A stretch of DNA of 56,100 nt from Promethearchaeota archaeon (GCA_013375485.1 JABXKB010000001.1:1-56100); one strand, 5' to 3'. Shown: positions 2,957 through 42,893, numbered from the stretch's first letter. Made by a program: numbers and translations. Notes: generated by a model not told the origin, from the sequence alone.

Positions 2957-3256
2957 TTAGTATAGATGATAACGATCTTCTTCTACCTGTATTCCCATTT
3001 TATATAATAAGACTTCCATTGCGGTTATATATGTTAACTGCAGTAGGCGTATTTCAGTCACCTTATGGTGATTTTCTGTTTTAGCTGTAGAAAAAAAGGA
3101 AACAGAGTGATCATTGTGAACAAACAAACGATCAGATTCACTTAGTGCCGTAATACACCATTTATCTTCACAGCTCACCGCTGGCCGTCTCCACACTTGA
3201 ATCTTATATGGACCTATTTTATTTGGGATTATATTCGACAAAAAACCATTATTCAT
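2957..3256 (-). CDS. hypothetical protein
   Basis: 99-aa ORF, start overlaps stop of upstream gene by 8 nt. Confidence 0.5.
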   Translation of the reverse strand: MNNGFLSNIIPNKIGPYKIQVWRRPAVSCEDKWCITALSESDRLFVHNDHSVSFFSTAKTENHHKVTEIRLLQLTYITAMEVLLYKMGIQVEEDRYHLY

Positions 3257-4010
3257 CTTCTATTGTTCCAGTTAATTCACAAATGGGCTTAGTAAAATAC
3301 AATCTATATGTTACAAACATTTCTATTGGTAACTTCATTGGCTTATCTTCATGATTTTTTACTACCACATTAAATCCATAGCCACCCCAATCCCCAAAGC
3401 CCGCTTTAACTTGAACTCCACCCCATCGAAAATAATGGTGCTTTAACGCAAGTTGTTGTGGCTTAGAAACCAACCAAAACTCTTTTCCTTCTTTCATAAT
3501 ACTCTTTAAAGTCTCAAATATTTTAACTGTATCTGTTCTATTACAATCAATGGATACAGCATTATTTTTATTTACTTTACGTATTGCGGTTTGACGTTCT
3601 TTCACCTCCCTGAGTTCCTTAATTGGATTATATTCGTCGCCATCACTATCCAATAAAAAGTGATCAGCTATATCTGGATCATGTTCATAATGCGTGAGTT
3701 CTGATTGACTTGCAATACAAGTTAAAACTTTACCTAACTTGCCATTGGCGCATATCGTTCTAACATATGGAACACCTATTGCATCAACATATTGAACTAC
3801 GTATTTTCTGGGTAAATTAATAGACTTACTGACCATAACAACTTTTCTACTTAAACGATCACCATATCCCGTTTTCTTAATTAAAATATCACCGATTGCA
3901 AAGTTTGTGTCTTTATTTTCTATTAACCACTTATAAACAGGGTTATCATTTTGTGTTGTTTTGATTTGTTTTTTGAATGCATCAGTTATTTCTGCTTGCC
4001 ACTTACTCAT
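3249..4010 (-). CDS. hypothetical protein, paralogue of 4007..4723
   Basis: shared segment IGDILIKK...YVVQYVD..GVPYVR...GKLG.. vs VGDTLIRY...YIVARND.GIVYVKK...GKLG; ATGA overlap with upstream gene. Confidence 0.7.
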   Translation of the reverse strand: MSKWQAEITDAFKKQIKTTQNDNPVYKWLIENKDTNFAIGDILIKKTGYGDRLSRKVVMVSKSINLPRKYVVQYVDAIGVPYVRTICANGKLGKVLTCIASQSELTHYEHDPDIADHFLLDSDGDEYNPIKELREVKERQTAIRKVNKNNAVSIDCNRTDTVKIFETLKSIMKEGKEFWLVSKPQQLALKHHYFRWGGVQVKAGFGDWGGYGFNVVVKNHEDKPMKLPIEMFVTYRLYFTKPICELTGTIEDE

Positions 4011-4723
4011 AGAACTTCCTCTGCTTTCTTGAAGGTCATTGGCTGTTCAATATACATAAAATAATTCGCCTCAGTAAAATGTCTTACATCTAACTTAACA
4101 CCATCTGTCGTTATCAAGCTATGTAAATAATAGATACGACTACTCCAACTACATACCTTTCCCTCTACTTTATATTTTTCTACTATATATTCATTAATTT
4201 TTTTGCCATCGCCAAATACATCTTCCCATACTTTAATTCCAGTTTTACAATTTGCCATCCATTTTTGGACTTCAACATCTTTCTTAAAGCGTAGTCTTGA
4301 TTTCTCGTTATATCTACGTAGTTTATCCACTATCTTATTGTGACGTTTACGCGCGTTACGCGGGTCAAATTCTGTACCCAGTAACACACTATCGATTTGT
4401 GCTGGATCTATTTGATACTCATAATTATCAAAGTCTTCAACCGCTATGGCCTCAATACCGGTGCCCAATTTGCCGCTTTTTAATATTTTTTTTACATATA
4501 CTATACCGTTGTCGTTACGTGCAACAATGTATCTTTCTGGTATTCCATCAATCTTAATAACCTTGTTGCTTCGCTTGTTGTAACGAATTAACGTATCGCC
4601 CACTTTAAAAAAACGTTGATACTCTATATTTTTGCCGACAGTAAAGGCAGTTTTTACGCTTTTCTTTGTTCTTGACAATCTTTCTAAACGTTCATCTGGT
4701 ATTTCTAAGTTTTTGAAATGCAT
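4007..4723 (-). CDS. hypothetical protein, paralogue of 3249..4010
   Basis: 238-aa ORF; SD AAGGAGGG upstream of ATG 4723. Confidence 0.7.
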   Translation of the reverse strand: MHFKNLEIPDERLERLSRTKKSVKTAFTVGKNIEYQRFFKVGDTLIRYNKRSNKVIKIDGIPERYIVARNDNGIVYVKKILKSGKLGTGIEAIAVEDFDNYEYQIDPAQIDSVLLGTEFDPRNARKRHNKIVDKLRRYNEKSRLRFKKDVEVQKWMANCKTGIKVWEDVFGDGKKINEYIVEKYKVEGKVCSWSSRIYYLHSLITTDGVKLDVRHFTEANYFMYIEQPMTFKKAEEVL

Positions 4724-4746
4724 GAATTTCCCTCCTTATTATTATT

Positions 4747-4779
4747 ATTATACAAAACAAAAATTAACGATAGTATAAT
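4747..4779. promoter_or_regulatory. divergent pair of TATAAT -10-like boxes
   Basis: minus-sense TTGTATAAT (4747-4755) upstream of ATG 4723; plus-sense GATAGTATAAT (TATAAT at 4774-4779) upstream of ATG 4808. Confidence 0.4.
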
Positions 4780-4807
4780 AGAGATGGTACGGTAAACAGG
4801 AGATACT

Positions 4808-4978
4808 ATGTTAAGAATTTTTAAATGTAGAAGAAGCTCGATAGCATTAATAGGTATCGCAATCTTAACTTTTCTTGGATATACAAAAGGATTAGATGTT
4901 TCTATGGCTATCTCAGGGATAGTTTTAGCCGTTGCTGGTTCTAATGCTTATGAAAAAAAGAATAAGGATGAATACTAA
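4808..4978 (+). CDS. small membrane protein (56 aa)
   Basis: SD CAGGAGA before ATG 4808; two hydrophobic segments (IALIGIAILTFLG, AISGIVLAVAG). Confidence 0.4.
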   Translation: MLRIFKCRRSSIALIGIAILTFLGYTKGLDVSMAISGIVLAVAGSNAYEKKNKDEY

Positions 4979-4979
4979 T

Positions 4980-5171
4980 TTATTCCATATTAGATATATC
5001 ATTATCTAACACTATAATGTGTTTTTCTTTAGTTAAGCGCACTTTATATCGCTTTATTTTAACTTTTTCTGTGACTGTGCCGCGAACTGGACATTTCCAT
5101 GTATATTCTGCTTCATATTCATAATCTAACCAATCTTCTAATTTTTTTTGACCCTTTTTCTTTCTCGCCAT
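4980..5171 (-). CDS. hypothetical protein
   Basis: 63-aa ORF directly downstream (2 nt) of 5173..5730. Confidence 0.5.
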   Translation of the reverse strand: MARKKKGQKKLEDWLDYEYEAEYTWKCPVRGTVTEKVKIKRYKVRLTKEKHIIVLDNDISNME

Positions 5172-5172
5172 T

Positions 5173-5730
5173 TTAACCTTCTTTGTATTGGTCTAACTCC
5201 AACCACTCCGTTTTTAATAATTCGTATATAGCCATTCTATATTGCTCTAACTGTTTTGGTAATTTTTTGCGCCTTATTAGCTCCATCCACGCCTGTAAAC
5301 TACCATGCATTATAACTTCATTATACTTATTGATTGGCGTAAGAGTCTGCGAAGTGAACCTATCACATCCATCCATTTCAAATCCTTTGGAATTTAATTC
5401 CAATGCATCATTGGTCTCTTTTATATATTCTGCAATCCTACGGTCATCCTCAGCAACCCCTGTATCAATCTCAGATACATCTGGGATATACGATTCTAAT
5501 TGTTTAGTTGAAGGTAGAGGCGTGATTTTAAGGTCAAATTGACTTAAAAAAATCTGTACAAAAAGTGGACATTTAATGATAAATGTTGCGTTTGCGATTT
5601 TTAGAAGTTCTTTATTTAAGCGAGTCTTAAAATAAATATCGGATACGTTTTTAATTGCGCGGCCGTTTAAATTAGCGCTTAATAAACCCACATAACCATG
5701 ATCTAATACATTAATTTTACTTAACAGCAT
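5173..5730 (-). CDS. ThyX-like protein lacking the RHR..S catalytic motif
   Basis: INVLDHGYVGLL, ATFIIKCPLFVQIFLSQFD (ThyX has FTFxVKAPIFVARQWxRHR), ESYIPD and the C-terminal helices resemble T. maritima ThyX; GGTATAAT box at 5753-5760. Confidence 0.6.
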   Translation of the reverse strand: MLLSKINVLDHGYVGLLSANLNGRAIKNVSDIYFKTRLNKELLKIANATFIIKCPLFVQIFLSQFDLKITPLPSTKQLESYIPDVSEIDTGVAEDDRRIAEYIKETNDALELNSKGFEMDGCDRFTSQTLTPINKYNEVIMHGSLQAWMELIRRKKLPKQLEQYRMAIYELLKTEWLELDQYKEG

Positions 5731-5759
5731 ACAATAATCCCTTTATGGAACTATTATAC

Positions 5760-6203
5760 CTATTTGTCTTCATCGTCTTCATCACTTAATAAAATATTAT
5801 CTATTGGATTGTCTACAATCTTTATTATTTCGTTTATTTGCTCTAAATCTCTTATTTTTTCTGCCCGTTCATCCATAATAATAATTTTTTTGTCAACTAT
5901 TTTCCACACTCGAATGAAATAATCCCGTAACTCAGCGTGCTCTTTTTTAGACAAATCTTTTCCTTTTATATAAAGCGAATTTCTTACAAAGTTAAGAGAA
6001 CCTCCACCCTCTTCTTGAAAAATTGTCCACTGTTGGTCTTGATATCGTACGCGATACGCCAATTTTGGTCCCACTTGGACACAAAAACTATTTAAGTGGG
6101 TATATCCAATATCGCGGCCATATTTAATTTCATTTAAGTTTATATTATTTATGTAGTTTTCGATAAACTTCAATATCTTTTTAGCAACTTTAATCTTCTT
6201 CAT
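5760..6203 (-). CDS. hypothetical protein with acidic C-terminus
   Basis: 147-aa ORF overlapping upstream gene by 14 nt. Confidence 0.6.
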   Translation of the reverse strand: MKKIKVAKKILKFIENYINNINLNEIKYGRDIGYTHLNSFCVQVGPKLAYRVRYQDQQWTIFQEEGGGSLNFVRNSLYIKGKDLSKKEHAELRDYFIRVWKIVDKKIIIMDERAEKIRDLEQINEIIKIVDNPIDNILLSDEDDEDK

Positions 6204-6654
6204 TGGCCCCCAATACTATATCGTTGATAGAATCATCAGTAATTCTTAAAATTTCTTCACACTTATTATATTCACTGCCATTATCTCTTTTCTCTTTTTG
6301 AGCACGATATGCTTCACGTATTTCATTGCTTGACTGTTCTATTTCTTTTATTAACTGTTTGCGTATTTTTGATGGTATATCTCTAAAGTGCACGCGGATT
6401 GTTTGTTTTTTGCAACAAAACCCATTTGCATTATAGGTTTCTTTTATTACATCAATCCAAGAATTACTCCAACTTAAGTATAATGCATTGCTTGAGTCAA
6501 GCCACCAACCAAACCAACGTGCTTTACCATATGAAAACTTAGTCAATATCTCTTTTTCTTTTTTATATTGTCGTACCATATAGTCTACTGTAGAGCGTAT
6601 TGTTTCTAATTGACGCTTAACTAAAGGTGTTATTTCTTTTCTTCGCCAGAACAT
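6190..6654 (-). CDS. hypothetical protein
   Basis: 154-aa ORF in co-oriented operon. Confidence 0.6.
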   Translation of the reverse strand: MFWRRKEITPLVKRQLETIRSTVDYMVRQYKKEKEILTKFSYGKARWFGWWLDSSNALYLSWSNSWIDVIKETYNANGFCCKKQTIRVHFRDIPSKIRKQLIKEIEQSSNEIREAYRAQKEKRDNGSEYNKCEEILRITDDSINDIVLGANEED

Positions 6655-6658
6655 ATAT

Positions 6659-6976
6659 TTACCTTTTAAAAACCACAGTATTTACGGCGCCCCTTAAATC
6701 CTCTTCGCTTAATGTTGAAATTTTATATGAATCATCGCGGTCAGAAATGGCATCTGCGCCATATAAATAGCGCTTATACGCACTAAAGGCTCGTCCCAAT
6801 GCCTTTATTAAACCAACTTTTTTCGCAAATTGATCTAATGGGTGGCATCTAGATTCGCCAACAAAAACCTGATTACCATTTACCAAAGCAACAACCGTCA
6901 TCTTTTTGTCCACATAATGCCTAATACACACTTTTTCAAAAATTATTTTTGCGGTATCTAAATTAATTGTCATCAT
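6659..6976 (-). CDS. hypothetical protein
   Basis: ORF 6659..7015 trimmed to ATGATG at 6976 preceded by AAGGGAAG; motif GESRCHPLDQFAKKVGLIKALGRA. Confidence 0.55.
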   Translation of the reverse strand: MMTINLDTAKIIFEKVCIRHYVDKKMTVVALVNGNQVFVGESRCHPLDQFAKKVGLIKALGRAFSAYKRYLYGADAISDRDDSYKISTLSEEDLRGAVNTVVFKR

Positions 6977-7400
6977 TCTTCCCTTCTTTTTCAACAAAGC
7001 GAAAATCTTCGTCATCTGTTACTTCATTAATTCCAGCTTTACATGTATATTCATCATTTAATACGATTCCCTCTATGACTTCATTCATTATAAGGTCTTC
7101 ATAGTTTGCCTCTATATAGTCAATTGTATTTCTATCTAAAAAGTTTAAACGCTTGCTTTTATCAGTTCCACATATCAATATCTTTGCGTGATGTTGATGC
7201 TCAAGGTACATACTGCCGACTTCATCTAACATTTCAGTAAACTCATATGGACCATGGAGCGTTCCACAAAGATACTTACATTTTTCTGGATCACCAGTAG
7301 CTACTGCAACCATAAACTGTTTATCACGTAGTTCATTAAGGTCCATAGTTTCAAATTCGCCAACAAAATTCTCGTCTTTATTAACCGGTAAATCACTCAT
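6963..7400 (-). CDS. acidic hypothetical protein
   Basis: 145-aa ORF; SD GAGGAG 8 nt before ATG 7400; first gene after motif copy 1. Confidence 0.6.
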   Translation of the reverse strand: MSDLPVNKDENFVGEFETMDLNELRDKQFMVAVATGDPEKCKYLCGTLHGPYEFTEMLDEVGSMYLEHQHHAKILICGTDKSKRLNFLDRNTIDYIEANYEDLIMNEVIEGIVLNDEYTCKAGINEVTDDEDFRFVEKEGKNDDN

Positions 7401-7433
7401 ACAAATCTCCTCAATTTAAAATATATTAATTTG

Positions 7434-7444
7434 TCGAATCGGTT
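7434..7444 (-). promoter_or_regulatory. AACCGATTCGAT-class intergenic motif, copy 1
   Basis: minus-sense CTGAAACCGATTCGACAAAT; 11 nt after stop of 7456..8190, 34 nt before ATG 7400. Confidence 0.55.
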
Positions 7445-7455
7445 TCAGTTAAAAG

Positions 7456-8190
7456 CTATCTCCCTAGCATTTTTAAGACCTTTTCTTCATCTCGTTCGTA
7501 AATATGCATGCTATGAGCTGTATGAGTATAATGTCCAACTTCTAAATCAGGATAAGCGTCCTTAAGTTCATCTATCATTTTATACATTAAACTGATAAAC
7601 CATGGAAGGTCATAAGTTAGTCCCAAAGTAAGGTCATTACTTCGCATGACGATGCTTAGATTAAGTTTATTATCACGAATCAAGAAGTTACCGCCAAGCG
7701 TACAAACAAAATCTTTATTGCCCATATAGTGATGTTCTGGCAGACTAAACCGTAAAAGTGCTTGACGTGTATCTTTGTCTGCTCTTAAAGATTCAACACA
7801 CCATTCCCATGGCGTACGTGACACTGCTTCGTAAGCGTCATTGCCCAAACTCTTCTTTTGCCAAATCAAATGACCATAGGCCGAGTTTACTGTTCCATCG
7901 GAATTAGCTATCTTATTCCAAAACTTAGAAGCCTTAGCAAACTCTTTGACATCGTTAGTGCACGAATTATATAGTTCAACCTCTTTTTTAGTATATTTTT
8001 CTATTATCTTATTGCGCTCTGCATCGCGTGTTATGATTGGGTCGGGTTTAGGATTTGTTACTCGAAATGTATAATCAGTAATCTCGCGCACAGCTTGACC
8101 GCGTGGTGATGCTTTGTATTCATAATTAAAATAAACATCTTCTAACGAACCTAGATACGCTTCGTGTAAAGTATCATAAACCTTCATCAC
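7456..8190 (-). CDS. thymidylate-synthase-fold deoxypyrimidine hydroxymethylase (T4 gp42-like)
   Basis: DFVCTLGGNFLIRDNKLNLSIVMRSNDLTLGLTYDLPWF and HSMHIYERD match recalled gp42 blocks; catalytic Cys present; Asp at the ThyA Asn177-equivalent position. Confidence 0.7.
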   Translation of the reverse strand: MMKVYDTLHEAYLGSLEDVYFNYEYKASPRGQAVREITDYTFRVTNPKPDPIITRDAERNKIIEKYTKKEVELYNSCTNDVKEFAKASKFWNKIANSDGTVNSAYGHLIWQKKSLGNDAYEAVSRTPWEWCVESLRADKDTRQALLRFSLPEHHYMGNKDFVCTLGGNFLIRDNKLNLSIVMRSNDLTLGLTYDLPWFISLMYKMIDELKDAYPDLEVGHYTHTAHSMHIYERDEEKVLKMLGR

Positions 8191-8211
8191 TATCTCCTTT
8201 AATCACAATTA

Positions 8212-8886
8212 TTACATCCACCTTTTTACATGTTCTTCATATATTCTACGATTTGATCTAGTAGGACTGTTATAACGGGTCCACCAGTCAATTGGCTCGC
8301 GTTTTTTATAACCTCGTTGAAAATCGCGTAAAACTATGGCACCAGATTCTATGGAGTATTCTAAGTCTGTAGTTAATTGCTCAATATCAAAATCATATCT
8401 ATTGGCGGTTGTATAGTTAATTTGACTCATTCCAAAGTCAAAACAAATCTTGACTTTCTTAAACCTTTTAACTCCATTAACGCACCGATCAATCAACACA
8501 AAATCCCCATCTTGTAATGGATTTAAAAACATTCCATCTACTGTTTTAAATTTTTCAATACATTTACTTTTTTTCTCTGCAATTTCTTCATGACTTAATT
8601 CTGTAATTCCACTAGTACAATTCTTGGCACCCAAGTCATACTTAGATTCTTGCATTAAAATAGCTGTATATAGTCGCGCATCGATTTTATACCTTTTAGC
8701 AATTTTATAAATTATATTAGATATCTTAAACATTTTCTTTTTATTGACTTTATACGTTTTGCTTACCAATTTAAGTTTTTTAGCTGTTTTAAAATTGTTT
8801 AATATTTGACAGTATATCTTATTGCGTTTACAGTCTACGGCATATAAGGTGCTTGATAATATTAAAAATATTAGTACATGTCTCAT
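8212..8886 (-). CDS. secreted lytic transglycosylase (SLT domain)
   Basis: N-terminal signal peptide MRHVLIFLILSSTLYA; AILMQESKYD catalytic-Glu motif and FGMSQINY. Confidence 0.65.
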   Translation of the reverse strand: MRHVLIFLILSSTLYAVDCKRNKIYCQILNNFKTAKKLKLVSKTYKVNKKKMFKISNIIYKIAKRYKIDARLYTAILMQESKYDLGAKNCTSGITELSHEEIAEKKSKCIEKFKTVDGMFLNPLQDGDFVLIDRCVNGVKRFKKVKICFDFGMSQINYTTANRYDFDIEQLTTDLEYSIESGAIVLRDFQRGYKKREPIDWWTRYNSPTRSNRRIYEEHVKRWM

Positions 8887-9053
8887 CGCTTTTTCCTTCT
8901 ATCAATGTCTTCAATTATTTTTACTATCCACATGTTCACTAAACAAAATATCACCGCAACTACACTTAAAGTATTAACTTTAATATATAAAGCAAACATG
9001 TTTAATAGGCATAATATGAACCATCCCCAAAATCCAAATATAGGTTTTTTCAT
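8883..9053 (-). CDS. small membrane protein (56 aa)
   Basis: ATGA overlaps at both ends (9050-9053 and 8883-8886); SD GGGAG; two hydrophobic helices. Confidence 0.45.
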   Translation of the reverse strand: MKKPIFGFWGWFILCLLNMFALYIKVNTLSVVAVIFCLVNMWIVKIIEDIDRRKKR

Positions 9054-9250
9054 TTTAAGCTCCCTATAACTATAAGAAGAATTATGCTAATTATAATTAA
9101 AACTGCCAATGCAGCAGTAAAAATCAATGGACTTAATACCCAGAACCATGACCATGTAATTACGCCACCTAGCTTTAAGCCAATAAAAAGAATAGTTAAT
9201 AGTCCCCAAAAACCTATTCCACCGCCATTTACTTGAATCTTATCGCTCAT
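9050..9250 (-). CDS. small multi-TM membrane protein (holin-like candidate)
   Basis: 66 aa, almost entirely hydrophobic (GFWGLLTILFIGL..., LSPLIFTAALAVLIIISIILLIVI). Confidence 0.6.
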   Translation of the reverse strand: MSDKIQVNGGGIGFWGLLTILFIGLKLGGVITWSWFWVLSPLIFTAALAVLIIISIILLIVIGSLK

Positions 9251-9251
9251 A

Positions 9252-9401
9252 TTAAGTCTCCATCCAAATACAAAATAAACCTAACACTATCCATCCTATT
9301 CCTGTTGAACTATTGGTGATATACATACAAAAACTGCCGGCTACGCAAACAGCAATAGATGCTATACCTCTCGCTATACCTCTTGCTATATCTCTATCCA
9401 T
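9252..9401 (-). CDS. small membrane protein (49 aa)
   Basis: SD GGAGGAATA before ATG 9401 (TAATG overlap with upstream stop); hydrophobic core. Confidence 0.45.
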   Translation of the reverse strand: MDRDIARGIARGIASIAVCVAGSFCMYITNSSTGIGWIVLGLFCIWMET

Positions 9402-9787
9402 TATTCCTCCGCATCGCGCTCCCATAAAACTTCTTCTAAATTAGAAGTCCATTTACCATAACCATACCTTGTTTTTGTTAGTTTTTTCATTAACTGACCA
9501 GTTCTATTAAATAAATGTTGATAAACAAAAGTAGATTCTTTAACAGATTTTCCAGTTCTTTCACTAATGTAATTAGGGTTATATTTTTGCAAAGCAACTA
9601 ATACTTCAGTTTTTAAGTGCTGTCTAAAATCATTCATTGTCCAACCAGAATTACCTAATTGAACTTCACTATCATGTTTATTTAATGAAGCTTCGTTCCA
9701 ATTTTTTTGTACGTATTTCTGTAAATACATTTCTACCATAGCTTCATATTTTTTAATGTCTGCATTTGTTACTTTTCTCATTACCAT
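9401..9787 (-). CDS. sigma-70-family region-2-like protein (no region 4), candidate phage sigma factor
   Basis: YEAMVEMYLQKYV / TEVLVALQKYNPNY / STFVYQHLFNRTGQLMKKLTK resemble ECF sigma regions 2.1-2.4 (RpoE FNLLVVRYQHKV / VQEAFIKAYRALDSF / FYTWLYRIAVNTAKNYL). Confidence 0.4.
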   Translation of the reverse strand: MVMRKVTNADIKKYEAMVEMYLQKYVQKNWNEASLNKHDSEVQLGNSGWTMNDFRQHLKTEVLVALQKYNPNYISERTGKSVKESTFVYQHLFNRTGQLMKKLTKTRYGYGKWTSNLEEVLWERDAEE

Positions 9788-10302
9788 CTCCTCATTCTAC
9801 GACGACGGGCATTAGGTGTCTCGTATTTATCACTATATTTTGTATACAATACTTCCATAATTTTAAATGCGTTATTCATATGAAAATCATCGCCTTTATT
9901 TTCTTGTATGTATTTCCATAAATTATATATAACAACTTCTGTATCACTATTTTCTAAAAAGTTTGACTCATTTAACCACTTTCCAACTTTTGTTTTTAAT
10001 GGGTGTAATTTAGTACTATTTTCTTCGTATGTGTCAATGATATTTCTTCTCATTTCTGACCTAATTCTATAATATGCATTATCTGTATCAATAGTAAATT
10101 TAAGCATTGTAATGTCAAAGCGAAAATAAATATGATCTTCAATTATCTTACGTAGATGCTCATTGTCGACATTAACTGTGCACTTAAAATCGCCACGAGG
10201 AAAACGTAGGCTTGTTCTCCCGTGATAATCTTTGTATAGACATGGTGACCATATAGATTTTGGCGGTTCAACATCATTGATAATTTCTTTTATATAACTC
10301 AT
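9781..10302 (-). CDS. hypothetical protein
   Basis: 173-aa ORF overlapping both neighbours. Confidence 0.6.
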   Translation of the reverse strand: MSYIKEIINDVEPPKSIWSPCLYKDYHGRTSLRFPRGDFKCTVNVDNEHLRKIIEDHIYFRFDITMLKFTIDTDNAYYRIRSEMRRNIIDTYEENSTKLHPLKTKVGKWLNESNFLENSDTEVVIYNLWKYIQENKGDDFHMNNAFKIMEVLYTKYSDKYETPNARRRRMRRW

Positions 10303-11036
10303 ACCTCCTCCTCATCAATAGAATAAATGGGATTTTCTGTTTTATGGGTTAACATTTTAAATTTACAGAAATTAACTAATGCAGCACCATTACCAGTCTT
10401 TAAATACAGTATAATCCACTTTACAACTTTATTAGATAACTCTACGTCTCTAATATTCCATTCATTATTTTTCATTATTTCACCTAATGCACTATATAGT
10501 CCACGAAGTTTTTGTCTAGCAGATCTTTTCTTTCTAACTTCTGATAAGCCTATATGATCTATTATTTCATTAATACGCTCAACCGGTATATCTCTCCAAT
10601 TATATAACAATTGTCTGAAATTACCAAGTTCGTGACTACCAAGTAATTTTAAGGCGTCTTTTTCTTCAAAACGCTCTCGTATTTTAAATATCCTTATTTG
10701 TATTCCATCACTTGTTTTATTTTCTAAATCTAAAACTGCATTTTCATCAATATTAAATTCTATATCAAAGCTTTCAATCAACTGATTACGGTCTTCCCAT
10801 CGTATTGAATTATAATCATCGAGCTCTTTTGCCATTAAAAGCTTTATTATATTTTCTTTTGTTATGCTGGCAGGTCCATCCCAACCATTACTTACTAATT
10901 TTAGTATTGTCTTATTATCTAGCGTAAACTCATTTGGCAATTTTGCCAATTTTTCATCTAAAGGATTAAAAACTGGCTCACAAAGCTTTGATACAAAATC
11001 CATATCATCAAAAACTTTGTCGTCAAAAATACCCAT
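10299..11036 (-). CDS. hypothetical protein
   Basis: 245-aa ORF; SD AAGGAGA before ATG 11036; first gene after motif copy 2. Confidence 0.65.
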   Translation of the reverse strand: MGIFDDKVFDDMDFVSKLCEPVFNPLDEKLAKLPNEFTLDNKTILKLVSNGWDGPASITKENIIKLLMAKELDDYNSIRWEDRNQLIESFDIEFNIDENAVLDLENKTSDGIQIRIFKIRERFEEKDALKLLGSHELGNFRQLLYNWRDIPVERINEIIDHIGLSEVRKKRSARQKLRGLYSALGEIMKNNEWNIRDVELSNKVVKWIILYLKTGNGAALVNFCKFKMLTHKTENPIYSIDEEEV

Positions 11037-16701: not shown

Positions 16702-18240
16702 TTATTCCTTTACATTGGTTGAAGCTGGTATTTTAATAGTTTTACCAAATCTTTTTAGTGGATGTTCAGCATCACCTTCTCTACTAATTATATAGAGACA
16801 CTGTGGAAATTGAGTACCCGGCGTTAACCACCCAGTTATATCCACATCACAATAACAACCATCAGTAACAAAAACATTAAGATCAGCTTTACGTTTTGCT
16901 ATATCCCTCATTGAGCTTTCTAAGCATGTTCCACCAGATTCAATCATGCTTCTATCTATTCTCATACCAAGTTTATATTCTTCTGAATAATAATTCGACG
17001 TATGAAATAAGTTTAATCTGCACTTTCTAGAACCTGCTCTTAAGAAGTTATCTACTATTTCTAAAAATTCATTAAGTTCTTCAATAGATATAGAGCCAGA
17101 TGTATCTAAATAAAAATTAAGTTTTGGAAGATCGCCAACTTTAGTACCCGGTGCTTTGGTTCCGAATCTACGAGATTTTCTAGTCCACGTTGACTTTCTT
17201 TCGTGTCCAGAAGCTGATTTCTTAATCGCTGCTAAAATTTCACCACGATAATCAAGCTCAGCACGCCTAGCTTTTAGTTCTTCAAGTAAATCTTTCATGC
17301 CACCAGGAAGATCGTCATAGGACATACGTTGTTTTACCATCGCGCGTTTAACTAAATCTTCTGTTGCTTCTATCATATCTCTTTCATCGCCCGAACCATC
17401 CCAATCATGAGAATCAAGCGTATCCATCATTCCTTTAGCTTTCCCAGTTCCTTTGCAATCTGGACATACTTTACCTGATCCGCCCGTCCCACTACAATCC
17501 TTACAGGGCTTTCCCTGATCATCTTTACCAGTTCCACCGCAACTTCCGCATGATGCTTCACCGGTACCATTGCAAGATTGACATTCTCCCTCACCATCTT
17601 CACCCTCTTCTATTTTCCTTAAGAGTAAGTCATAATAGTGTTCCATGGTTTTGCCTTCTGGCCATGGAGTCTTTTTACCGTTCTCATCTTCATCATAATA
17701 ATCTTCTACATGAATCGTATATCCACAACAATTTGGATTGGCACATTGAACACCCATTTGTAGAGCTTCTTTAGGTGGACATTGTGAACAGCCTTTAGGC
17801 AAATGCTGAATAAATTGATTAATGGCCATATCAGCTGCCACATTCATGAGTCGTCTTTTATTGGGCGATAATTTAATAAATGGAACACGCATTGGGTGCT
17901 TATTTGTTATATGATATAGTTCATGTAATAAAATCGCTTTACGCGCTTTATCACCAATGGACTTTTTATTTTTATCCATTGCTTCATTTAGATGATGACA
18001 GAAAAATTTTGGATTTATAAAAAGATCCCATCTTTTTGCATCTGCATTGAAACTTACTCCAGCTGTAGGTAAAGCATGGGTATACATGATATTGAGACAT
18101 TGTAGTATTGCTCCCATAAAGGGGTGCGATCTAGTTGTTTCATACAGCGCAGTTGCCAAACAACGATCTTGCTCTTTTACTTCAACAAACTCTTTATCTA
18201 ATAATTCTTTTGTGACTTTTGTCCTTTTTGTCTTTGCCAT
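16702..18240 (-). CDS. VWA-domain protein with N-terminal DUF2201-like metallopeptidase motif and DnaJ-type zinc-finger insert (MoxR partner)
   Basis: HELYHITNKH; MIDAS DTSGS (LNFYLDTSGSIS); four CxxCxGxG motifs at aa 220-266. Confidence 0.75.
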   Translation of the reverse strand: MAKTKRTKVTKELLDKEFVEVKEQDRCLATALYETTRSHPFMGAILQCLNIMYTHALPTAGVSFNADAKRWDLFINPKFFCHHLNEAMDKNKKSIGDKARKAILLHELYHITNKHPMRVPFIKLSPNKRRLMNVAADMAINQFIQHLPKGCSQCPPKEALQMGVQCANPNCCGYTIHVEDYYDEDENGKKTPWPEGKTMEHYYDLLLRKIEEGEDGEGECQSCNGTGEASCGSCGGTGKDDQGKPCKDCSGTGGSGKVCPDCKGTGKAKGMMDTLDSHDWDGSGDERDMIEATEDLVKRAMVKQRMSYDDLPGGMKDLLEELKARRAELDYRGEILAAIKKSASGHERKSTWTRKSRRFGTKAPGTKVGDLPKLNFYLDTSGSISIEELNEFLEIVDNFLRAGSRKCRLNLFHTSNYYSEEYKLGMRIDRSMIESGGTCLESSMRDIAKRKADLNVFVTDGCYCDVDITGWLTPGTQFPQCLYIISREGDAEHPLKRFGKTIKIPASTNVKE

Positions 18241-20549: not shown

Positions 20550-21365
20550 ATGGCGGACAAAAACAAAGAAATAACTGATATTTTTGATCATGGATTAGAT
20601 CGTAAGAATCGTAAAATATATTTTGGTGTTTTAGGGGATGAAGATGAAAGTGATTTTAGTTGGAGTTCGGTAGAACAAGCAATACGTGGAATGCATATTT
20701 TAGTTAAAGATAATCCTCGTTTACCTATAGAGCTCCATATATCGTCATATGGTGGATCGTTAGACGATATGCTTCGTTTAATTGATGAAGTACAAATATG
20801 TCCTTGTCAAATAAAATTTATCGGAGGGGGAAAAATACAATCAGCAGCTACATGGTTAATGGTAGTTTGTGACGAGCGCAATTTATATCCAAATACTCAA
20901 ATTATGCTTCATAATGGTAATTGTGAGGGTTATCCTCGTACATATACAGAAAATAATATAGATAGCGAGCAATGGACGCGACAAAACAAAGTTTTAAAAG
21001 AAGTGTTTGCCAATAATACCCACATGCCTTTTGAGTTTTGGGATGATGTGCTTCAACGCGATTTATTTTTAAATGCTGACGAAGCAGTGTCGTTAGGTCT
21101 TGCTGACAATATAGTTAAATATAAAAAGCGTGGAAATTTACGTAAATCAAGATCAGCAAAAATGGCTGCCAATAAAGACGCCGATGCATTAAAGAAATTA
21201 ATTAAAGCATTGTTAAAACGCGTACACAAAAAGACGATAAAAACCATCAACGTTAATATTCCTATCATTGAAGAATGTGACCCCGATATTGTAGTTGGTG
21301 ACAATATTAAGGAGAATAGTGATGTTAAAGATACTCAAGGACAGAATACAGGGGAAGGCGCCTAA
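20550..21365 (+). CDS. ClpP-fold serine protease (paralogue 1)
   Basis: HISSYGGSLDDMLRLID; Ser in GKIQSAATWL; His in IMLHNG; Asp in LQRDLFLNADEAVSLGLAD. Confidence 0.7.
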   Translation: MADKNKEITDIFDHGLDRKNRKIYFGVLGDEDESDFSWSSVEQAIRGMHILVKDNPRLPIELHISSYGGSLDDMLRLIDEVQICPCQIKFIGGGKIQSAATWLMVVCDERNLYPNTQIMLHNGNCEGYPRTYTENNIDSEQWTRQNKVLKEVFANNTHMPFEFWDDVLQRDLFLNADEAVSLGLADNIVKYKKRGNLRKSRSAKMAANKDADALKKLIKALLKRVHKKTIKTINVNIPIIEECDPDIVVGDNIKENSDVKDTQGQNTGEGA

Positions 21366-25080: not shown

Positions 25081-25299
25081 CTACATTTCAAAAAGCCAAG
25101 GGCAATATAGCGCCCACTCTTTTTTATCGTTAAATATTAAAAATTGAACTTCATATTCATCATCGTCATGGTGCGCCGGTACTGCCAATACATCATATAC
25201 CTTTCCCACAGTTATTCCTTCCACTAACTGTTTTTCTTTACGCCTATTAAAGTTTCCTTTTGTTGCCATTATATAGTTTTTAACACATGTAACCTTCAT
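25081..25299 (-). CDS. hypothetical protein
   Basis: 72-aa ORF following MORN array A. Confidence 0.5.
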   Translation of the reverse strand: MKVTCVKNYIMATKGNFNRRKEKQLVEGITVGKVYDVLAVPAHHDDDEYEVQFLIFNDKKEWALYCPWLFEM

Positions 25300-25789
25300 C
25301 TAATATCTCCTCTATAGCTAAACTAGCTAAGTAATCTTGCCTTTTAGGATGACTCTCAAATTCTTCTTCAGTTAGGTATTTATCATCAACATACCATCGT
25401 TTACTGCCACCAGAATATTCAACTGCTGGCCCATCTAAGCGATGACGTTTACTCTTAACATACCAACATTTACTGCCATTAGCATACTCAATTGCTGGCC
25501 CGTCTAAGCGATGTAACTTACCTTCAACATACCAATATTTATCACCATTAGCATACTCAATTGCTGGCCCCTTAAGGCGATGACGTTTATCCTCAACATA
25601 CCAACATTTACTACTACTAGCGTACTCAATTGCTGGTCCATCTAAGCGATGTAACTTACCATTAACATACCACGCTTTATAACCATTAGCAAGCTCAATT
25701 GCTGGCCCATCTAAGCGATGTAGTTTCTTATTATAATCACGATAACTTAAAACACTACCGTCTAAGTAATAAAATTTATCTTTCTTCAT
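25280..25789 (-). CDS. MORN-like 23-aa repeat protein, 5 repeats
   Basis: 5 HRL(D/K)GPA cores; N-cap MKKDKFYYLDGS; tail LASLAIEEILDEGYMC. Confidence 0.8.
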   Translation of the reverse strand: MKKDKFYYLDGSVLSYRDYNKKLHRLDGPAIELANGYKAWYVNGKLHRLDGPAIEYASSSKCWYVEDKRHRLKGPAIEYANGDKYWYVEGKLHRLDGPAIEYANGSKCWYVKSKRHRLDGPAVEYSGGSKRWYVDDKYLTEEEFESHPKRQDYLASLAIEEILDEGYMC

Positions 25790-26348
25790 CCAATATCTCC
25801 TCTATGGCTAAACTGGCTAAATAATCTTGCCTTCTAGGATGACTCTCAAATTCTTCTTCAGTTAGGTATTTATCATCAACCCACCATTCTTTATGGCCAT
25901 TAGCGTATTCAACTGCTGGCCCATCTAAGCGATGTAACTTGCCTTTAATATACCAACTTTTATTGCCATTAGCATACTCAATTGCTGGCCCATCTAAGCG
26001 ATGATGTTTACCCTCAACATACCAATATTTATTACCACTAGCATACTCAACTGCTGGCCCATCTAAGCGATGTAACTCACCTTCAAAAAACCATTCTTTA
26101 TCGCCATTAGCCCACTCAATTGCTGGCCCATCTAAGCGATGTAACTTACCTTCAACACACCAACATTTATGACCATTAGCATACTCAATTGCTGGCCCAT
26201 CTAAGCGATGAATCTTATCTTCAATATACCAACATTTATGACCATTGGCATACTCAACAGCTGGCCCATCAAGGCGATGTAGTTTCTTCGTATCATCACA
26301 ATAATCTAAAATACTACCATCTAAGTAATAAAATTTATCTCTTTTCAC
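25776..26348 (-). CDS. MORN-like 23-aa repeat protein, 6 repeats
   Basis: 6 HRLDGPA cores; GTG start at 26348 inside upstream tail codons; tail LASLAIEEILDEER. Confidence 0.8.
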   Translation of the reverse strand: MKRDKFYYLDGSILDYCDDTKKLHRLDGPAVEYANGHKCWYIEDKIHRLDGPAIEYANGHKCWCVEGKLHRLDGPAIEWANGDKEWFFEGELHRLDGPAVEYASGNKYWYVEGKHHRLDGPAIEYANGNKSWYIKGKLHRLDGPAVEYANGHKEWWVDDKYLTEEEFESHPRRQDYLASLAIEEILDEER

Positions 26349-26700
26349 TTAGTATCTCCTCTATCGCCAAACTAGCTAAGTAGTCTTGCCTTTTAGGATG
26401 CGCTTCAAACTCTTCGTAAGTTAATTCTTCACCACCAACATACCACTCTTTATCACCATCAGCCCACTCAACAGCTGGCCCATCTAAGCGATGACGTTTA
26501 TCTTCAACATACCAACATTTATGACCATTGGCATACTCACAAGCTGGCCCATCAAGGCGATGTAACTTATCTTCAATCCACCACTCTTTACTGCCACTAG
26601 AATACTCAATTGCTGGCCCATCTAAGCGATGTAGTTTCTTATCCCAATCATAATAATCTAAAACACCACCGTCTGAGTAATAATATTTATTTTCTTTCAT
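26335..26700 (-). CDS. MORN-like 23-aa repeat protein, 3 repeats
   Basis: 3 HRLDGPA cores; tail LASLAIEEILSEKR. Confidence 0.8.
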   Translation of the reverse strand: MKENKYYYSDGGVLDYYDWDKKLHRLDGPAIEYSSGSKEWWIEDKLHRLDGPACEYANGHKCWYVEDKRHRLDGPAVEWADGDKEWYVGGEELTYEEFEAHPKRQDYLASLAIEEILSEKR

Positions 26701-33489: not shown

Positions 33490-34323
33490 CTATTTTTTAG
33501 CTGCTCGGTTTAAAACGTGTCTTGGAGTAATCCACATAAAGTTTTTTATATCAGTATTGATTTTTTCTATAATAGGTTCGCGTGAGAAACCATTGTGTTT
33601 CCACAATAAATCGTCATCGTCTTTCTTGTTTTCTGGTAATGGCTCTGCAAGTAATGGACACCCTGAAAACTTTTTATATTCGGTGATACAATCAAACCAT
33701 CCACATTTTCTTTGTGGCTTGATTACTGTTTTTTCTATTAAATCTTTATCACAGCCTATAGTTTTTATAACCGCATCAATGGCATTATATTTAGGTGCCG
33801 TTACTCTTGATAACCATAGATTGTTATTTATAGCAACCTTATAATCTTTATATTCCATTTTTAAGCGTTTAGAGGTCATATGCTCTACGTCTATTACTAT
33901 ATCGTTAATGGCATTAAAAAGACTCATTATTCTTGGAAATTCATCCCTAAAAAACCCAGATGCATTATGTTGCATAATAATTCCATCGTATAACAGGAGT
34001 CTATCATGGCATGCTTGAAACATAGCAAAAGCAGCAGAAGCAGCAAATCTCGCTACACAAGTAAACTTAATTTTAGATGACTTCATTATTCCTATAATTC
34101 TAGCCATAGCAAATACACTTCCACCAGGACTATCTATATAAACTATAAGCCTATCTTTATCATATGTCATAACTTTTCTGGTGAAACTTTCTACTAATTG
34201 TTCCGTAAAAACATCTGTCACGGCAAAAAAATTATTGTTTTCTAATTTTACATTTACATCTTTATTGTTGGCAAATGCACCAAAATTAATTAAAATTAAA
34301 AATAACACTAAAACCCTATACAT
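33490..34323 (-). CDS. secreted ClpP-fold protease-like protein (paralogue 3)
   Basis: signal peptide MYRVLVLFLILINFGAFA; IVYIDSPGGSV; ARFAASAAFAMF; IIMQHNAS. Confidence 0.6.
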   Translation of the reverse strand: MYRVLVLFLILINFGAFANNKDVNVKLENNNFFAVTDVFTEQLVESFTRKVMTYDKDRLIVYIDSPGGSVFAMARIIGIMKSSKIKFTCVARFAASAAFAMFQACHDRLLLYDGIIMQHNASGFFRDEFPRIMSLFNAINDIVIDVEHMTSKRLKMEYKDYKVAINNNLWLSRVTAPKYNAIDAVIKTIGCDKDLIEKTVIKPQRKCGWFDCITEYKKFSGCPLLAEPLPENKKDDDDLLWKHNGFSREPIIEKINTDIKNFMWITPRHVLNRAAKK

Positions 34324-34648: not shown

Positions 34649-35380
34649 TTATTTTTTATAAGTTCGTTTTTTAGTTGGTGCTTTTTTCTTAGTTGGTGCT
34701 TTTTTCTTAGCTGGTGCTTTTTTCTTAGCTTTCTTTTTACTTTTAATATTTTTAACCGCTTCTTCTAATGTTTCCGCTTTAACATGTTCACCGCGATGAT
34801 TTTTAGCTTTTATAATTTCATATAGACTTGCAGCGTTTAAAGCAGGAACACCGACATCGTCTATTATTCCAAACTTTTTAGCCTCTTCAGCACTTAAATA
34901 AATGTCTTGGTTATCATTGTTCTTTATTATTTGTCTCATGCCATCATAACCATCTTTTATGCAACAATTTTTTGCTAATAAACCAATCCACATTTTGTTG
35001 AGTCTTTGTAGTTCTTTAGATGTATTTTTAATCTCCCTAACATTTCCTAATGCACCTGCCGACAATTCGTGTATCATTATTCTACTGCTTTTTGAGCAAA
35101 ATCTCATGTCTCCGTGCGATAATAGTATGGCGCCAGCAGACATAGCTTTCCCCACACAAACAGTTATTTTAGGATTTGGGGTTTCATCCATGGTATCTAT
35201 CATTTTAGCCATACCATCGACATTACCACCATATGAATCTATGTAAATTACAATTGGTTGATTAGGGCACTCTTTGGTTTTACTCCGCATTTGCAATCTA
35301 AATTTGTGTGATGCTTTTTCATCAAACTCATAAACCCATATTTCTTCGCCATAATCACGCGCATCAAAACGTTCGCCCAT
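34649..35380 (-). CDS. ClpP-fold serine protease with lysine-rich KKAPxK tail (paralogue 2)
   Basis: VIYIDSYGGNVDG; GKAMSAGAILL; IMIHELS; LSAEEAKKFGIIDD; tail KKAPAKKKAPTKKKAPTKK. Confidence 0.7.
   Translation of the reverse strand: MGERFDARDYGEEIWVYEFDEKASHKFRLQMRSKTKECPNQPIVIYIDSYGGNVDGMAKMIDTMDETPNPKITVCVGKAMSAGAILLSHGDMRFCSKSSRIMIHELSAGALGNVREIKNTSKELQRLNKMWIGLLAKNCCIKDGYDGMRQIIKNNDNQDIYLSAEEAKKFGIIDDVGVPALNAASLYEIIKAKNHRGEHVKAETLEEAVKNIKSKKKAKKKAPAKKKAPTKKKAPTKKRTYKK
34671..34724. repeat. 3 x 18-nt tandem repeat encoding KKAP(A/T)K
   Basis: ttag(t/c)tggtgcttttttc x3. Confidence 0.8.
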
Positions 35381-39427: not shown

Positions 39428-39658
39428 TTATTGTAATATTTTGTCAATCTCTTTTTCTATTTCTTTATTTAATATAATTTTAGCTATTTTATAGGCTTGT
39501 TTGAGGGTGCAAGTTGTCACTCTATGTACCTTGTTACTTTTTAATGGACACTTGCTACTACACCCAAAATGGACACAAATAGCTCGAGCTGCAGTAGAAG
39601 ACACCCTTCCTTTATTTTCAATAACATCTTGCAATAAAGTATATTCATCGTTAGTCAT
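39428..39658 (-). CDS. Cys-containing small protein, paralogue of 22549..22788
   Basis: trimmed to ATG 39658 (MTNDEYTLL) after AAGAGG. Confidence 0.5.
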   Translation of the reverse strand: MTNDEYTLLQDVIENKGRVSSTAARAICVHFGCSSKCPLKSNKVHRVTTCTLKQAYKIAKIILNKEIEKEIDKILQ

Positions 39659-40061
39659 ATAATACCTCTTTTTCAAATGCCTCATTGCGATAAGCTTCAA
39701 ACTTTTTATAAGTTAAACACTCACCTTCAATATACCAACTTTTACTACCATCAGCAAACTCAACCGCTGGTCCATCTAAGCGATGTAACTTACCATTAAC
39801 ATACCATCGTTTACTGCCACTAGTATACTCAATTGCTGGTCCATCTAAGCGATGTAACTTACCATTAACATACCATCGTTTACTGCCACTAGAATACTCA
39901 ACCGCTGGTCCATCTAAGCGATGTAACTTACCTTCAACATACCATTCCCTATGACCATTGGCATACTCAACAGCTGGCCCATCTAAGCGATGTAGTTCCT
40001 TATCCCAATCATCATAATCTAAAATACTACCACCTAAGTAATAAAATTTATCTCTTTTCAC
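39651..40061 (-). CDS. MORN-like repeat protein, 4 repeats, array-closing tail
   Basis: 4 HRLDGPA cores; tail LTYKKFEAYRNEAFEKEVLYD. Confidence 0.8.
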   Translation of the reverse strand: MKRDKFYYLGGSILDYDDWDKELHRLDGPAVEYANGHREWYVEGKLHRLDGPAVEYSSGSKRWYVNGKLHRLDGPAIEYTSGSKRWYVNGKLHRLDGPAVEFADGSKSWYIEGECLTYKKFEAYRNEAFEKEVLYD

Positions 40062-40479
40062 CTAGTATCTCCTCTATAGCTAAACTAGCTAAGTAATCTT
40101 GCCTTTTAGGATGCGCTTCAAATTGTTCTTCAGTTAAACGTTTACCCTCAACATACCATTCTTTATCGCCATTAGCGTACTCAATCGCTGGCCCATCAAG
40201 GCGATGACATTTACCCTCAACATACCAACTTTTACTACCCTCAACATACTCAATTGCTGGTCCATCTAAGCGATGACGTTTACCCTTAACATACCATCGT
40301 TTACTGCCACTAGAATACTCAATTGCTGGTCCATCTAAGCGATGACGTTTATCTTCAATCCACCACTCTTTACTGCCATTAGCGTACTCAATTGCTGGCC
40401 CATCTAAGCGATGTAAGATTTTATCCCAACCATAATAATCTAAAATACTACCATCTAAGTAATAAAATTTATCTTTCAT
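40048..40479 (-). CDS. MORN-like repeat protein, 4 repeats
   Basis: 4 HRLDGPA cores; tail LASLAIEEILGEKR. Confidence 0.8.
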   Translation of the reverse strand: MKDKFYYLDGSILDYYGWDKILHRLDGPAIEYANGSKEWWIEDKRHRLDGPAIEYSSGSKRWYVKGKRHRLDGPAIEYVEGSKSWYVEGKCHRLDGPAIEYANGDKEWYVEGKRLTEEQFEAHPKRQDYLASLAIEEILGEKR

Positions 40480-40897
40480 TCAATATTTCCTCTATGGCTA
40501 AACTAGCTAAGTAGTCTTGCCTTTTAGGATGCGCTTCGAATTGTTCTTCAGTTAATAATTTACCATCAACCCACCATTCTTTATGGCCACTAGCATACTC
40601 AACTGCTAGCTCATCTAAGCGATGTAACTTACCTTCAAAAAACCACTTTTTACTACCATCAGCATACTCACAAGCTGGCCCATCTAAGCGATGTAACTTA
40701 CCTTCAAAAAACCACTTTTTACTACCATCAGCATACTCAATTGCCGGCCCATCTAAGCGATGACGTTTATCTTCAACATACCACTCTTTATCACCATTGG
40801 CAAACTCAGCTGCTGGTCCATCTAAGCGATGTAGTTTCTTATCCCAATCATAATAATCTAAAATACTGCCATCTAAGTAATAAAATTTATCTTTCAT
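40469..40897 (-). CDS. MORN-like repeat protein, 4 repeats
   Basis: 4 HRLD cores (last HRLDELA); tail LASLAIEEILNER. Confidence 0.8.
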   Translation of the reverse strand: MKDKFYYLDGSILDYYDWDKKLHRLDGPAAEFANGDKEWYVEDKRHRLDGPAIEYADGSKKWFFEGKLHRLDGPACEYADGSKKWFFEGKLHRLDELAVEYASGHKEWWVDGKLLTEEQFEAHPKRQDYLASLAIEEILNER

Positions 40898-41456
40898 TCA
40901 ATATTTCCTCTATAGCTAAACTAGCTAAGTAATCTTGTCTTTTAGGATGTGTTTCAAATTGTTCTTCAGTTAAATGTTTACCATCAACCCACCAATATTT
41001 ATCACCATTGGCATACTCAACAGCTGGCCCATCTAAGCTATGCAACTTACCTTCAAAAACCCATTCTTTACTGCCATTAGCATACTCAACAGCTGGTCCA
41101 TCTAAGCGATGCAACTTACCTTCAAAAAACCATTCTTTATCGCCATTAGCGTACTCAATTGCTGGTCCATCTAAGCGATGAAACTTACCTTCAAAAAACC
41201 ATTCTTTATCGCCATCAGCCCACTCAATTGCTGGCCCGTCTAAGCGATGTAACTTACCTTCAACATACCAATATTTATCACCATTAGCATACTCAATTGC
41301 TGGCCCATCTAAGCGATGACGTTTATCCTCAATCCACCACTCTTTATTACCATCAGCATACTCAATTGCTGGTCCATCAAGGCGATGTAGTTTCTTCGTA
41401 TCATCATAATAATCTAAAATACTACCGTCTAAGTAATAAAATTTATTTTTCTTCAC
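40887..41456 (-). CDS. MORN-like repeat protein, 6 repeats
   Basis: 6 cores (last LHSLDGPA); tail LASLAIEEILNER. Confidence 0.8.
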   Translation of the reverse strand: MKKNKFYYLDGSILDYYDDTKKLHRLDGPAIEYADGNKEWWIEDKRHRLDGPAIEYANGDKYWYVEGKLHRLDGPAIEWADGDKEWFFEGKFHRLDGPAIEYANGDKEWFFEGKLHRLDGPAVEYANGSKEWVFEGKLHSLDGPAVEYANGDKYWWVDGKHLTEEQFETHPKRQDYLASLAIEEILNER

Positions 41457-42506: not shown

Positions 42507-42535
42507 TTAATGGTCCCCTTTTTATGTGTTTAATA

Positions 42536-42573
42536 ATCGAATCGGTTGGGGTGAATTGTGGCGTAGCGGTGTC
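42536..42573 (-). promoter_or_regulatory. 38-nt box GACACCGCTACGCCACAATTCACCCCAACCGATTCGAT (contains motif copy 8)
   Basis: identical 38-mer at 44209..44246; core motif at 42537-42547. Confidence 0.6.
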
Positions 42574-42575
42574 AA

Positions 42576-42885: not shown

Positions 42886-42893
42886 ATTTCCTC

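Follow-up and report, generated by a model that had tools for sequence, protein, structure and literature searches.

ThyX, the flavin-dependent thymidylate synthase (Pfam PF02511, Thy1; Thermotoga maritima TM0449, PDB entries 1kq4 and 1o26), is an antibacterial drug target, and to our knowledge a single type of reaction has been assigned to its fold: the flavin-dependent methylation of (deoxy)uridine monophosphate, (d)UMP. The reaction requires flavin adenine dinucleotide (FAD) stacked on dUMP, and the site is built from three subunits (PMC5954106). The enzyme is also carried by phages: genes named "ThyX-like thymidylate synthase" occur in actinophages, roseophages, crAss-like phages and others and often lie beside other nucleotide-metabolism genes. 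The second system of relevance is the pyrimidine module of phage T4, which comprises gp42, the deoxycytidine monophosphate (dCMP) hydroxymethylase, Cd, the dCMP deaminase, and Td, the thymidylate synthase. According to C. K. Mathews and colleagues, these three T4 enzymes reportedly associate physically in a complex that synthesises deoxynucleoside triphosphates. This report describes a gene at positions 5173-5730 (minus strand) of a 56,100-nucleotide stretch from Promethearchaeota archaeon (GCA_013375485.1, JABXKB010000001.1:1-56100), hereafter the window. Its product, family member P0001, has the ThyX fold without the ThyX active site, and the gene occupies a conserved position in a string of phage nucleotide-metabolism genes.

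The open reading frame (ORF) is intact, encodes 185 amino acids and has an ATG start preceded by the Shine-Dalgarno-like sequence AAAGGGA. It is part of a long co-directional gene run in a window that is AT-rich (34% G+C, GC), has nearly all of its genes on the minus strand and originates from a marine-sediment metagenome. As a single query, the 185-residue protein had no match in Pfam, PHROGs, NCBIfam or PDB, and none among 50,697 deposited phage genomes; the Pfam search returned nothing even at E ≤ 1, short of the Thy1 gathering threshold. Metagenomes provided 16 close homologues at 46-76% identity. A single-sequence search is therefore blind to the ThyX relation, which only profiles and structure bring out.

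Several methods identified the protein as a ThyX homologue. First, a 16-sequence family profile searched against PDB with HMMER matched ThyX chains only (6j61, E 7.7e-5; T. maritima 1kq4, E 4e-4). The block pairs of this alignment, family first, were KINVLDKGYV with KIDILDKGFV, ATLIIKvPLFVQ with FTFHVKAPIFVAR, EAYIPD with EFYIPS and tPIsvYne with LPLNLYT, followed by a C-terminal helix. The block-by-block alignment with Thermotoga-type ThyX, C-terminal helix included, on which the original prediction had based its assignment was thus reproduced. Secondly, hhalign comparison of 82 family members with 21 canonical ThyX sequences gave a probability of 99.8% and an E value of 5.6e-28 over 184 columns. 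Third, 29 of the 82 members matched Pfam Thy1 at E ≤ 1, the best at 7e-9. Fourth, the comparison with ThyX structures that had been suggested at the outset agreed: the AlphaFold2 (AF2) model of the 185-residue protein (pLDDT 78, pTM 0.71) was aligned by Foldseek with T. maritima ThyX at E 1.3e-12 and TMq 0.74, at 20% identity. Lastly, the significant matches in a structure search of BFVD were all phage ThyX, at no more than 18% identity. Since these lines of evidence are independent, the homology is far beyond chance, and the product of 5173-5730 is confirmed as a true, very divergent ThyX homologue. Family and enzyme share the fold over about 185 residues and the blocks LDxGxV, KxPxFV, E-x-Y-x-P and P-x-x-x-Y; in the numbering of the window protein the common core comprises L9-D10-x-G12, K53-x-P55-x-F57-V58, Y81-x-P83, P132-x-x-x-Y136 and Y164.

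The residues with which ThyX binds its ligands are missing. Columns at least 80% conserved in ThyX were tabulated from hhalign-merged alignments of the family and ThyX, and ThyX residues are numbered as in T. maritima through the HMMER alignments with PDB chains. All 13 polar ligand-binding positions examined are lost, with 79-89 family members covered. The stretch corresponding to the ThyX motif ARQWxRHRxxSxNExSxRY, codons 59-73 (QIFLSQFDLKITPLP; positions 5512-5556, minus strand), has I60 for R74 (family L/I/V), F61 for Q75 (N/F/S), Q64 for R78 (Q/R/K/E), F65 for H79 (F/Y) and D66 for R80 (G/N/D). S88 falls in a three-residue deletion, and R90 corresponds to P73 by hhalign or L72 by HMMER (family P/K/N). 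Elsewhere, H53 of the flavin/oxidase site is replaced by N39 in a column that varies among N, T, D and K, E144 by F125 (family F), R147 by Q128 (Q), Q180 by P158 (P) and E182 by Q160 (P/Q/L), while R174 falls in a second three-residue deletion. The columns of the dUMP-binding positions R74, Q75, R90, R147 and R174 are non-basic across the family.

The loss of the RHR motif and its serine, announced by the original prediction, was borne out. In the window protein the RHRx7S motif is replaced by Q64-F65-D66 and a deletion at S88, no alignment restored it, and the pattern R[HYS]R..S was present in none of 89 full-length family members, compared with 21 of 32 far matches, which are canonical ThyX. 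The accompanying claim, that the segment of type HGHETPFEH had been deleted, stands in part. The protein is about 18 residues shorter than ThyX in the HxSPFEH region, just before the following strand (the third), and the invariant residues of the segment have been replaced (H by N39, P by L42, F by L43 and E by K44); as far as the alignment goes, the deletion may have taken out the HxSPFEH loop or, instead, the helix that precedes this loop. With three further residues missing from the R174 loop, the family has a length of about 185 residues, compared with 198-318 in the canonical ThyX set. The family is acidic and ThyX is basic: the median isoelectric point is 5.9 with 3.2% Arg, whereas canonical ThyX has a median of 8.1 with 6.5% Arg. 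An acidic to neutral, Arg-poor family fits the loss of a phosphate-binding site.

The protein is almost certainly not a thymidylate synthase, as had been predicted, because the residues that bind FAD, dUMP and folate are all gone, and gone family-wide. The loss of these residues is observed directly; that the protein would lack catalysis altogether is what we infer from it. Since every catalytic feature of ThyX that was examined is absent, we keep it apart from the ThyX enzymes. Annotation based on fold would label these genes "thymidylate synthase," almost certainly wrongly. On the ThyX side, the comparison of the motif covered the canonical far matches, which do keep it.

The window protein belongs to a large family. 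Grouped at 50% identity, the matches of an exhaustive profile search formed about 120 clusters with intact frames, and almost all of these proteins have 175-200 residues; beyond a gap in the scores came canonical ThyX proteins of about 200-330 residues. The carriers are uncultured phages, whose contigs reach 157-176 kb, and no member was found in cultured phage genomes (the 50,697 noted above), BFVD, Pfam, PHROGs or NCBIfam. The GC content of the fetched carrier loci ranges from 30 to 60%. One relative from a lake was detected in at least 20 metagenome runs, nearly all of them from fresh water or lakes. Among relatives for which synonymous divergence can still be estimated, the ratio of nonsynonymous to synonymous substitution rates (dN/dS) is 0.07-0.18. 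The family is under purifying selection and is no decaying relic. It appears to be previously undescribed; in the literature we found no description of a dead, degenerate or "ThyX-like" pseudoenzyme family.

Conservation within the family is concentrated in the residues of the fold. Among the 82 aligned members, invariance is confined to G12 and P55; the only others to reach 90% are L9, P83, P132, Y136 and Y164, and no polar residue does. A semi-conserved patch that is specific to the family lies at codons 120-128 (DGCDRFTSQ; positions 5347-5373, minus strand), with D120 in 87% of sequences, G121 in 80%, C122 in 81%, D123 in 63% and Q128 in 74%. Together with T106, N113 and S134, the patch comprises D/E120 (acidic in 96%), G121, C122 (otherwise Ala), D/N123 and Q128. 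It is located on the helix-loop-helix that bears E144 and R147 in ThyX, and the confidence of the AF2 model is lowest there (pLDDT about 60). On conservation patterns, the D120 region is the sole hint of a possible new functional surface. Cys122 and Cys54 were considered as catalytic nucleophiles and ruled out, given that both alternate with Ala; Cys54 is also common in genuine ThyX, which has KCP or KAP at this place.

Three other cases encountered in the search concern the limits of the family. P0141 (L024, 415-978) is a different degenerate ThyX of 187 residues, in which RQW is still present, RHR has become GNPWN and the helical region at the N-terminus is missing, and which retains a Pfam Thy1 score; the motif may thus have been lost more than once, independently. 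P0112, with the N-terminus of an ABC ATPase and a ThyX-like C-terminus, was judged a probable chimeric contig and not a real fusion. On another short contig (L019, 1071-3578), an ABC-2 membrane gene and the ThyX-like gene lie 1 kb apart.

The gene lies in a conserved neighbourhood. Loci of relatives were taken from metagenomes and IMG/VR, and their ORFs were clustered all-against-all (clusters are written cl). The conserved order begins with cl3 (95 residues), cl4 (about 240), cl5 (about 125) and a ThyA-family gene, continues with the variable cl10 and cl18, cl1 (about 150) and the ThyX-like gene, and ends with an ORF of 74-85 residues, cl2 (about 250-285), a dCMP deaminase and a gene of the uracil-DNA glycosylase (UDG) superfamily. 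This order is kept in the window and in the loci of 10 relatives, down to 23% identity in a member on a 166.7 kb contig. Most relatives carry the dCMP deaminase one or two genes downstream of the ThyX-like gene, and in phages of the L013/L014 type the genes from hydroxymethylase to deaminase overlap or abut in an operon-like manner. A tblastn search of the window found no gene for dCMP deaminase, UDG-like, ADK-like, cl10 or cl18 proteins; these are variable parts of the string. Three small genes between cl1 and the ThyX-like gene are unique to the window. In addition, a phage contig of 60% GC (L020, 7498-9400) encodes, in a row, an HD-domain protein, the degenerate ThyX-like P0133 (a database singleton) and a dCMP deaminase; the stops and starts of these adjacent genes overlap. 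Because this GC-rich locus is independent of the others, the tie between the ThyX-like gene and the dCMP/dUMP branch is not mere inherited synteny.

The gp42-like enzyme that had been reported 1.7 kb away was recovered with the signature of T4 dCMP hydroxymethylase. It is a ThyA-family protein encoded at 7456-8190 (minus strand), 1.7 kb upstream of the ThyX-like gene, with matches to PF00303 (59 bits) and phrog_160; its top PDB match is T4 dCMP hydroxymethylase (1b49, E 6.5e-19). It retains the catalytic Cys, Asp at the equivalents of L143 and N177 of E. coli ThyA, and D169, as do all nine clade members compared, with the signature strings D-F-V-C-T and M-R-S-N-D-...-Y-D-L-P-W. Asp at the position of N177 confers cytosine specificity, an acidic residue at the position of L143 goes with the hydroxymethyl product, and D169N marks 5-hydroxy-dCMP synthases, in distinction from enzymes that keep D169 (PMC13326640). 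These residues mark 7456-8190 as a predicted 5-hydroxymethyl-dCMP synthase and not a thymidylate or 5-hydroxy-dCMP synthase. Because the diagnostic residues are kept, the carrier phages very probably substitute cytosine by 5-hydroxymethylcytosine (hmC) or a derivative, which predicts hmC-type DNA in an uncultured phage group of lakes and marine sediment. Homologues with the signature occur clade-wide (L001, L002, L007, L009-L011, L021 and L022).

Compared with the T4 module, the clade shares the gp42-type hydroxymethylase and, in most relatives, the dCMP deaminase. The slot of Td, however, is held by a ThyX-fold protein without an active site and not by an active ThyA or ThyX, and the other members of the string include no recognisable relative of T4 gp1 or gp56. 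A hidden Markov model of 21 ThyX sequences, run on the window and on the 10-kb surroundings of the gene in relatives, found only ThyX-like genes and no canonical ThyX. Any ThyX partner would thus have to come from the host or from elsewhere in the phage genome.

We put the chances at slightly better than even that the family is a pseudoenzyme, a ThyX-derived non-catalytic subunit that acts by binding in the metabolism of pyrimidine deoxynucleotides. As a descendant of ThyX that has kept the fold and lost the residues for FAD, dUMP and methylene-tetrahydrofolate, it would make no thymidine monophosphate (dTMP). With the basic site lost and strong conservation found at no polar residue, its action would lie in binding and not in catalysis. 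Its gene is fixed in a tightly packed string of probable early genes, with the hydroxymethylase, two or three conserved hypothetical proteins, the ThyX-like gene and, in most relatives, the dCMP deaminase. The dead subunit might be an adaptor for, or a regulator of, the proteins encoded with it (cl1, small ORF, cl2, deaminase and hydroxymethylase); for example, it could fill the place of thymidylate synthase beside dCMP deaminase and hydroxymethylase. Alternatively, within the same interpretation, it could modulate a bona fide ThyX. The trypanosome S-adenosylmethionine decarboxylase (AdoMetDC) prozyme (PMC5201418) may offer a parallel as a dead copy of an oligomeric enzyme that is kept under selection and that, as is proposed here, acts through assembly with other proteins; the likeness is one of analogy only, without homology to the present family.

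Several points weigh against this interpretation. First, the identity of the binding partners is one that we infer. Secondly, the logic of the pathway is incomplete because neither a fold nor a family could be recognised for cl1, cl2, cl4 and cl5. Third, the semi-conserved patch, which lies on the element that supplies R147 in ThyX, could mark a new catalytic or ligand-binding site instead of a protein interface. Lastly, the search for a thymidylate synthase covered the window and 10 kb around the genes of relatives, a part of their 157-176 kb genomes.

The patch carries the strongest competing explanation, which we consider unlikely but deserving of serious attention. Under this explanation the family has become another enzyme, with a new flavin-independent site around T106, N113, D/E120-G-C-D/N123, Q128 and S134 and a pyrimidine deoxynucleotide as substrate. 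Candidate reactions, to which we give no more weight than to the explanation itself, would be a need of hmC phages that no recognisable gene of the string covers, such as the hydrolysis of dCTP, dCDP or dUTP, as by T4 gp56, or a further step on 5-hydroxymethyl-dCMP. The family-specific polar residues do cluster on one helix-loop-helix, the acidic character of position 120 is nearly universal, the same element lines the substrate site of ThyX, and the operon context is nucleotide-metabolic. Moreover, the string yielded no gene of dCTPase, dUTPase or MazG-like type, and a survey found that such pyrophosphohydrolases accompany ThyA homologues and dCMP deaminases in contigs of cytosine-modified phages (PMC8670742). 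However, every residue of the patch is conserved to less than 90%; in 9 of 89 sequences Cys122 has given way to Ala, and Gln128 and Asp123 vary, which is unusual for catalytic residues. The functions missing from the string could be provided by its other hypothetical genes. We also know of no hydrolase or transferase with the ThyX fold, which we count against a new enzyme.

It is less probable still, and in our view doubtful, that the dead protein co-assembles with the ThyX of the host and either inhibits it, the first role suggested by the original prediction, or activates it in the manner of a prozyme. Because each ThyX active site spans three subunits of the tetramer, such co-assembly would switch the host enzyme off or on. 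The retention of the fold and of the conserved non-catalytic blocks LDxGxV, KxPxFV, YxP and PxxxY would suit a subunit of this kind, as would the absence of a canonical ThyX from the window and the 10-kb loci. However, the gene travels with dCMP deaminase, whose product dUMP is the substrate of thymidylate synthase, and blocking dTMP would conflict with the needs of a phage whose window has 34% GC and which requires thymidine triphosphate (dTTP). The range of 30-60% GC among the loci points to a variety of hosts, and ThyA would be the expected enzyme in many of them; the lost residues are those that form the inter-subunit active-site interface of ThyX. The evidence on the host itself conflicts, with a Flavobacteriaceae metagenome-assembled genome (MAG) on one side and strong Shine-Dalgarno use on the other.

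A thymidylate synthase that is still active, binding flavin and dUMP in a different manner, is very improbable. It would account for a gene in the slot beside dCMP deaminase, which in phages is commonly filled by a thymidylate synthase, and no other thymidylate synthase was seen in the window and the 10-kb loci. Nevertheless, the FAD, dUMP and folate residues are gone without compensating conserved basic residues, S88 and R174 lie in deleted segments, and the Arg content is half that of ThyX. Weakest of all, a non-functional ThyX relic or a chance similarity would explain the loss of the active site and nothing further, and it is refuted by the roughly 120 clusters with intact frames, the dN/dS of 0.07-0.18, the synteny to 23% identity and the hhalign E value of 5.6e-28.

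With the non-catalytic subunit as the preferred reading, a wider proposal can be made, which we hold tentatively and rate as possible but well short of an even chance: that a large clade of cytosine-modifying phages has turned the ThyX scaffold to a new function, one without precedent on this fold. Two versions share that rating. The protein could be a flavin-independent pyrimidine enzyme acting through D/E120-G-C-D123, or a dedicated dead subunit by which a complex of thymidylate synthase or dCMP deaminase is reprogrammed, possibly that of the host's ThyX. A widespread family under selection, with the fold but without the active site, amounts to a second use of the ThyX scaffold. Because its gene sits between hydroxymethylase and deaminase in abundant uncultured aquatic phages, the family belongs to an uncharacterised part of the phage machinery for hmC-type DNA and dTTP balance. 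A known partner or activity would close a gap in the pathway and could show how ThyX assembly is regulated or inhibited; the dead-subunit version, if true, would give a first handle on roles of ThyX that are independent of catalysis.

The remaining members of the string in the window are all encoded on the minus strand. A 63-residue ORF at 4980-5171 (clusters cl21 and cl17) begins one base past the stop of the ThyX-like gene, at the position where most relatives have the ORF of 74-85 residues. cl1 is a conserved protein of 145 residues at 6963-7400, recognised by synteny, with 205 homologues that are all hypothetical; in several relatives it is directly upstream of the ThyX-like gene, with stop and start overlapping. 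Its AF2 model (pLDDT 75) had no significant structure match in PDB by Foldseek, and profile searches against PDB and family profiles gave none either. cl2 (238 residues, 4007-4723), likewise recognised by synteny, follows the ThyX-like gene in all relatives whose sequence extends far enough downstream, and ORF clustering identified a second cl2 paralogue of 253 residues at 3249-4010. cl5 (128 residues, 9401-9787) is upstream of the hydroxymethylase in all relatives, immediately so in several, and is highly conserved across the clade, with a mean column identity of 67% and 47 invariant columns. cl4 (245 residues, 10299-11036) is a conserved protein of the same syntenic string. Profile searches of cl5, cl4 and cl2 against PDB gave no match. 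A promoter and terminator scan of 3000-9500 gave counts not clearly above chance.

Further genes accompany the nucleotide string. A DUF2201 metallopeptidase/VWA-like protein (16702-18240, minus strand, in the window) is conserved in the clade upstream of the string. Near the string in relatives are RtcB (L002, 4739-5902), Ro60/TROVE (L010, 3859-5505), UvdE (L007, 4165-5181), a PNKP-type HAD phosphatase (L022, 1209-1685), PTH2 (L005, 4319-4735) and peptide deformylase (L021, 137-643), which by their annotation form a putative set for RNA and DNA repair and translation maintenance.

As to the host of the window phage, Shine-Dalgarno motifs, G-rich at -11 to -7, precede 65 of 100 window ORFs. The contig of one relative was binned in a Flavobacteriaceae MAG. 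A Flavobacteriaceae host was not trusted for the window phage in view of this Shine-Dalgarno count, and strong use of the motif disfavours a Bacteroidota host for it.

Two other features of the window were observed. ClpP-like protease genes number three within the 56 kb fragment, at 20550-21365 (plus strand), 33490-34323 and 34649-35380 (both minus strand); two of them are detectable paralogues, and ClpP is found in relatives too. In addition, a paralogous family of 22 small ORFs, of 74-190 residues, forms tandem overlapping arrays at 25280-26700, 39651-43298 and 49666-54210 (minus strand). Some of their upstream regions are near-identical, the match to Pfam DUF6745 is weak and N-terminal, and for a phage such a multigene expansion is very large.

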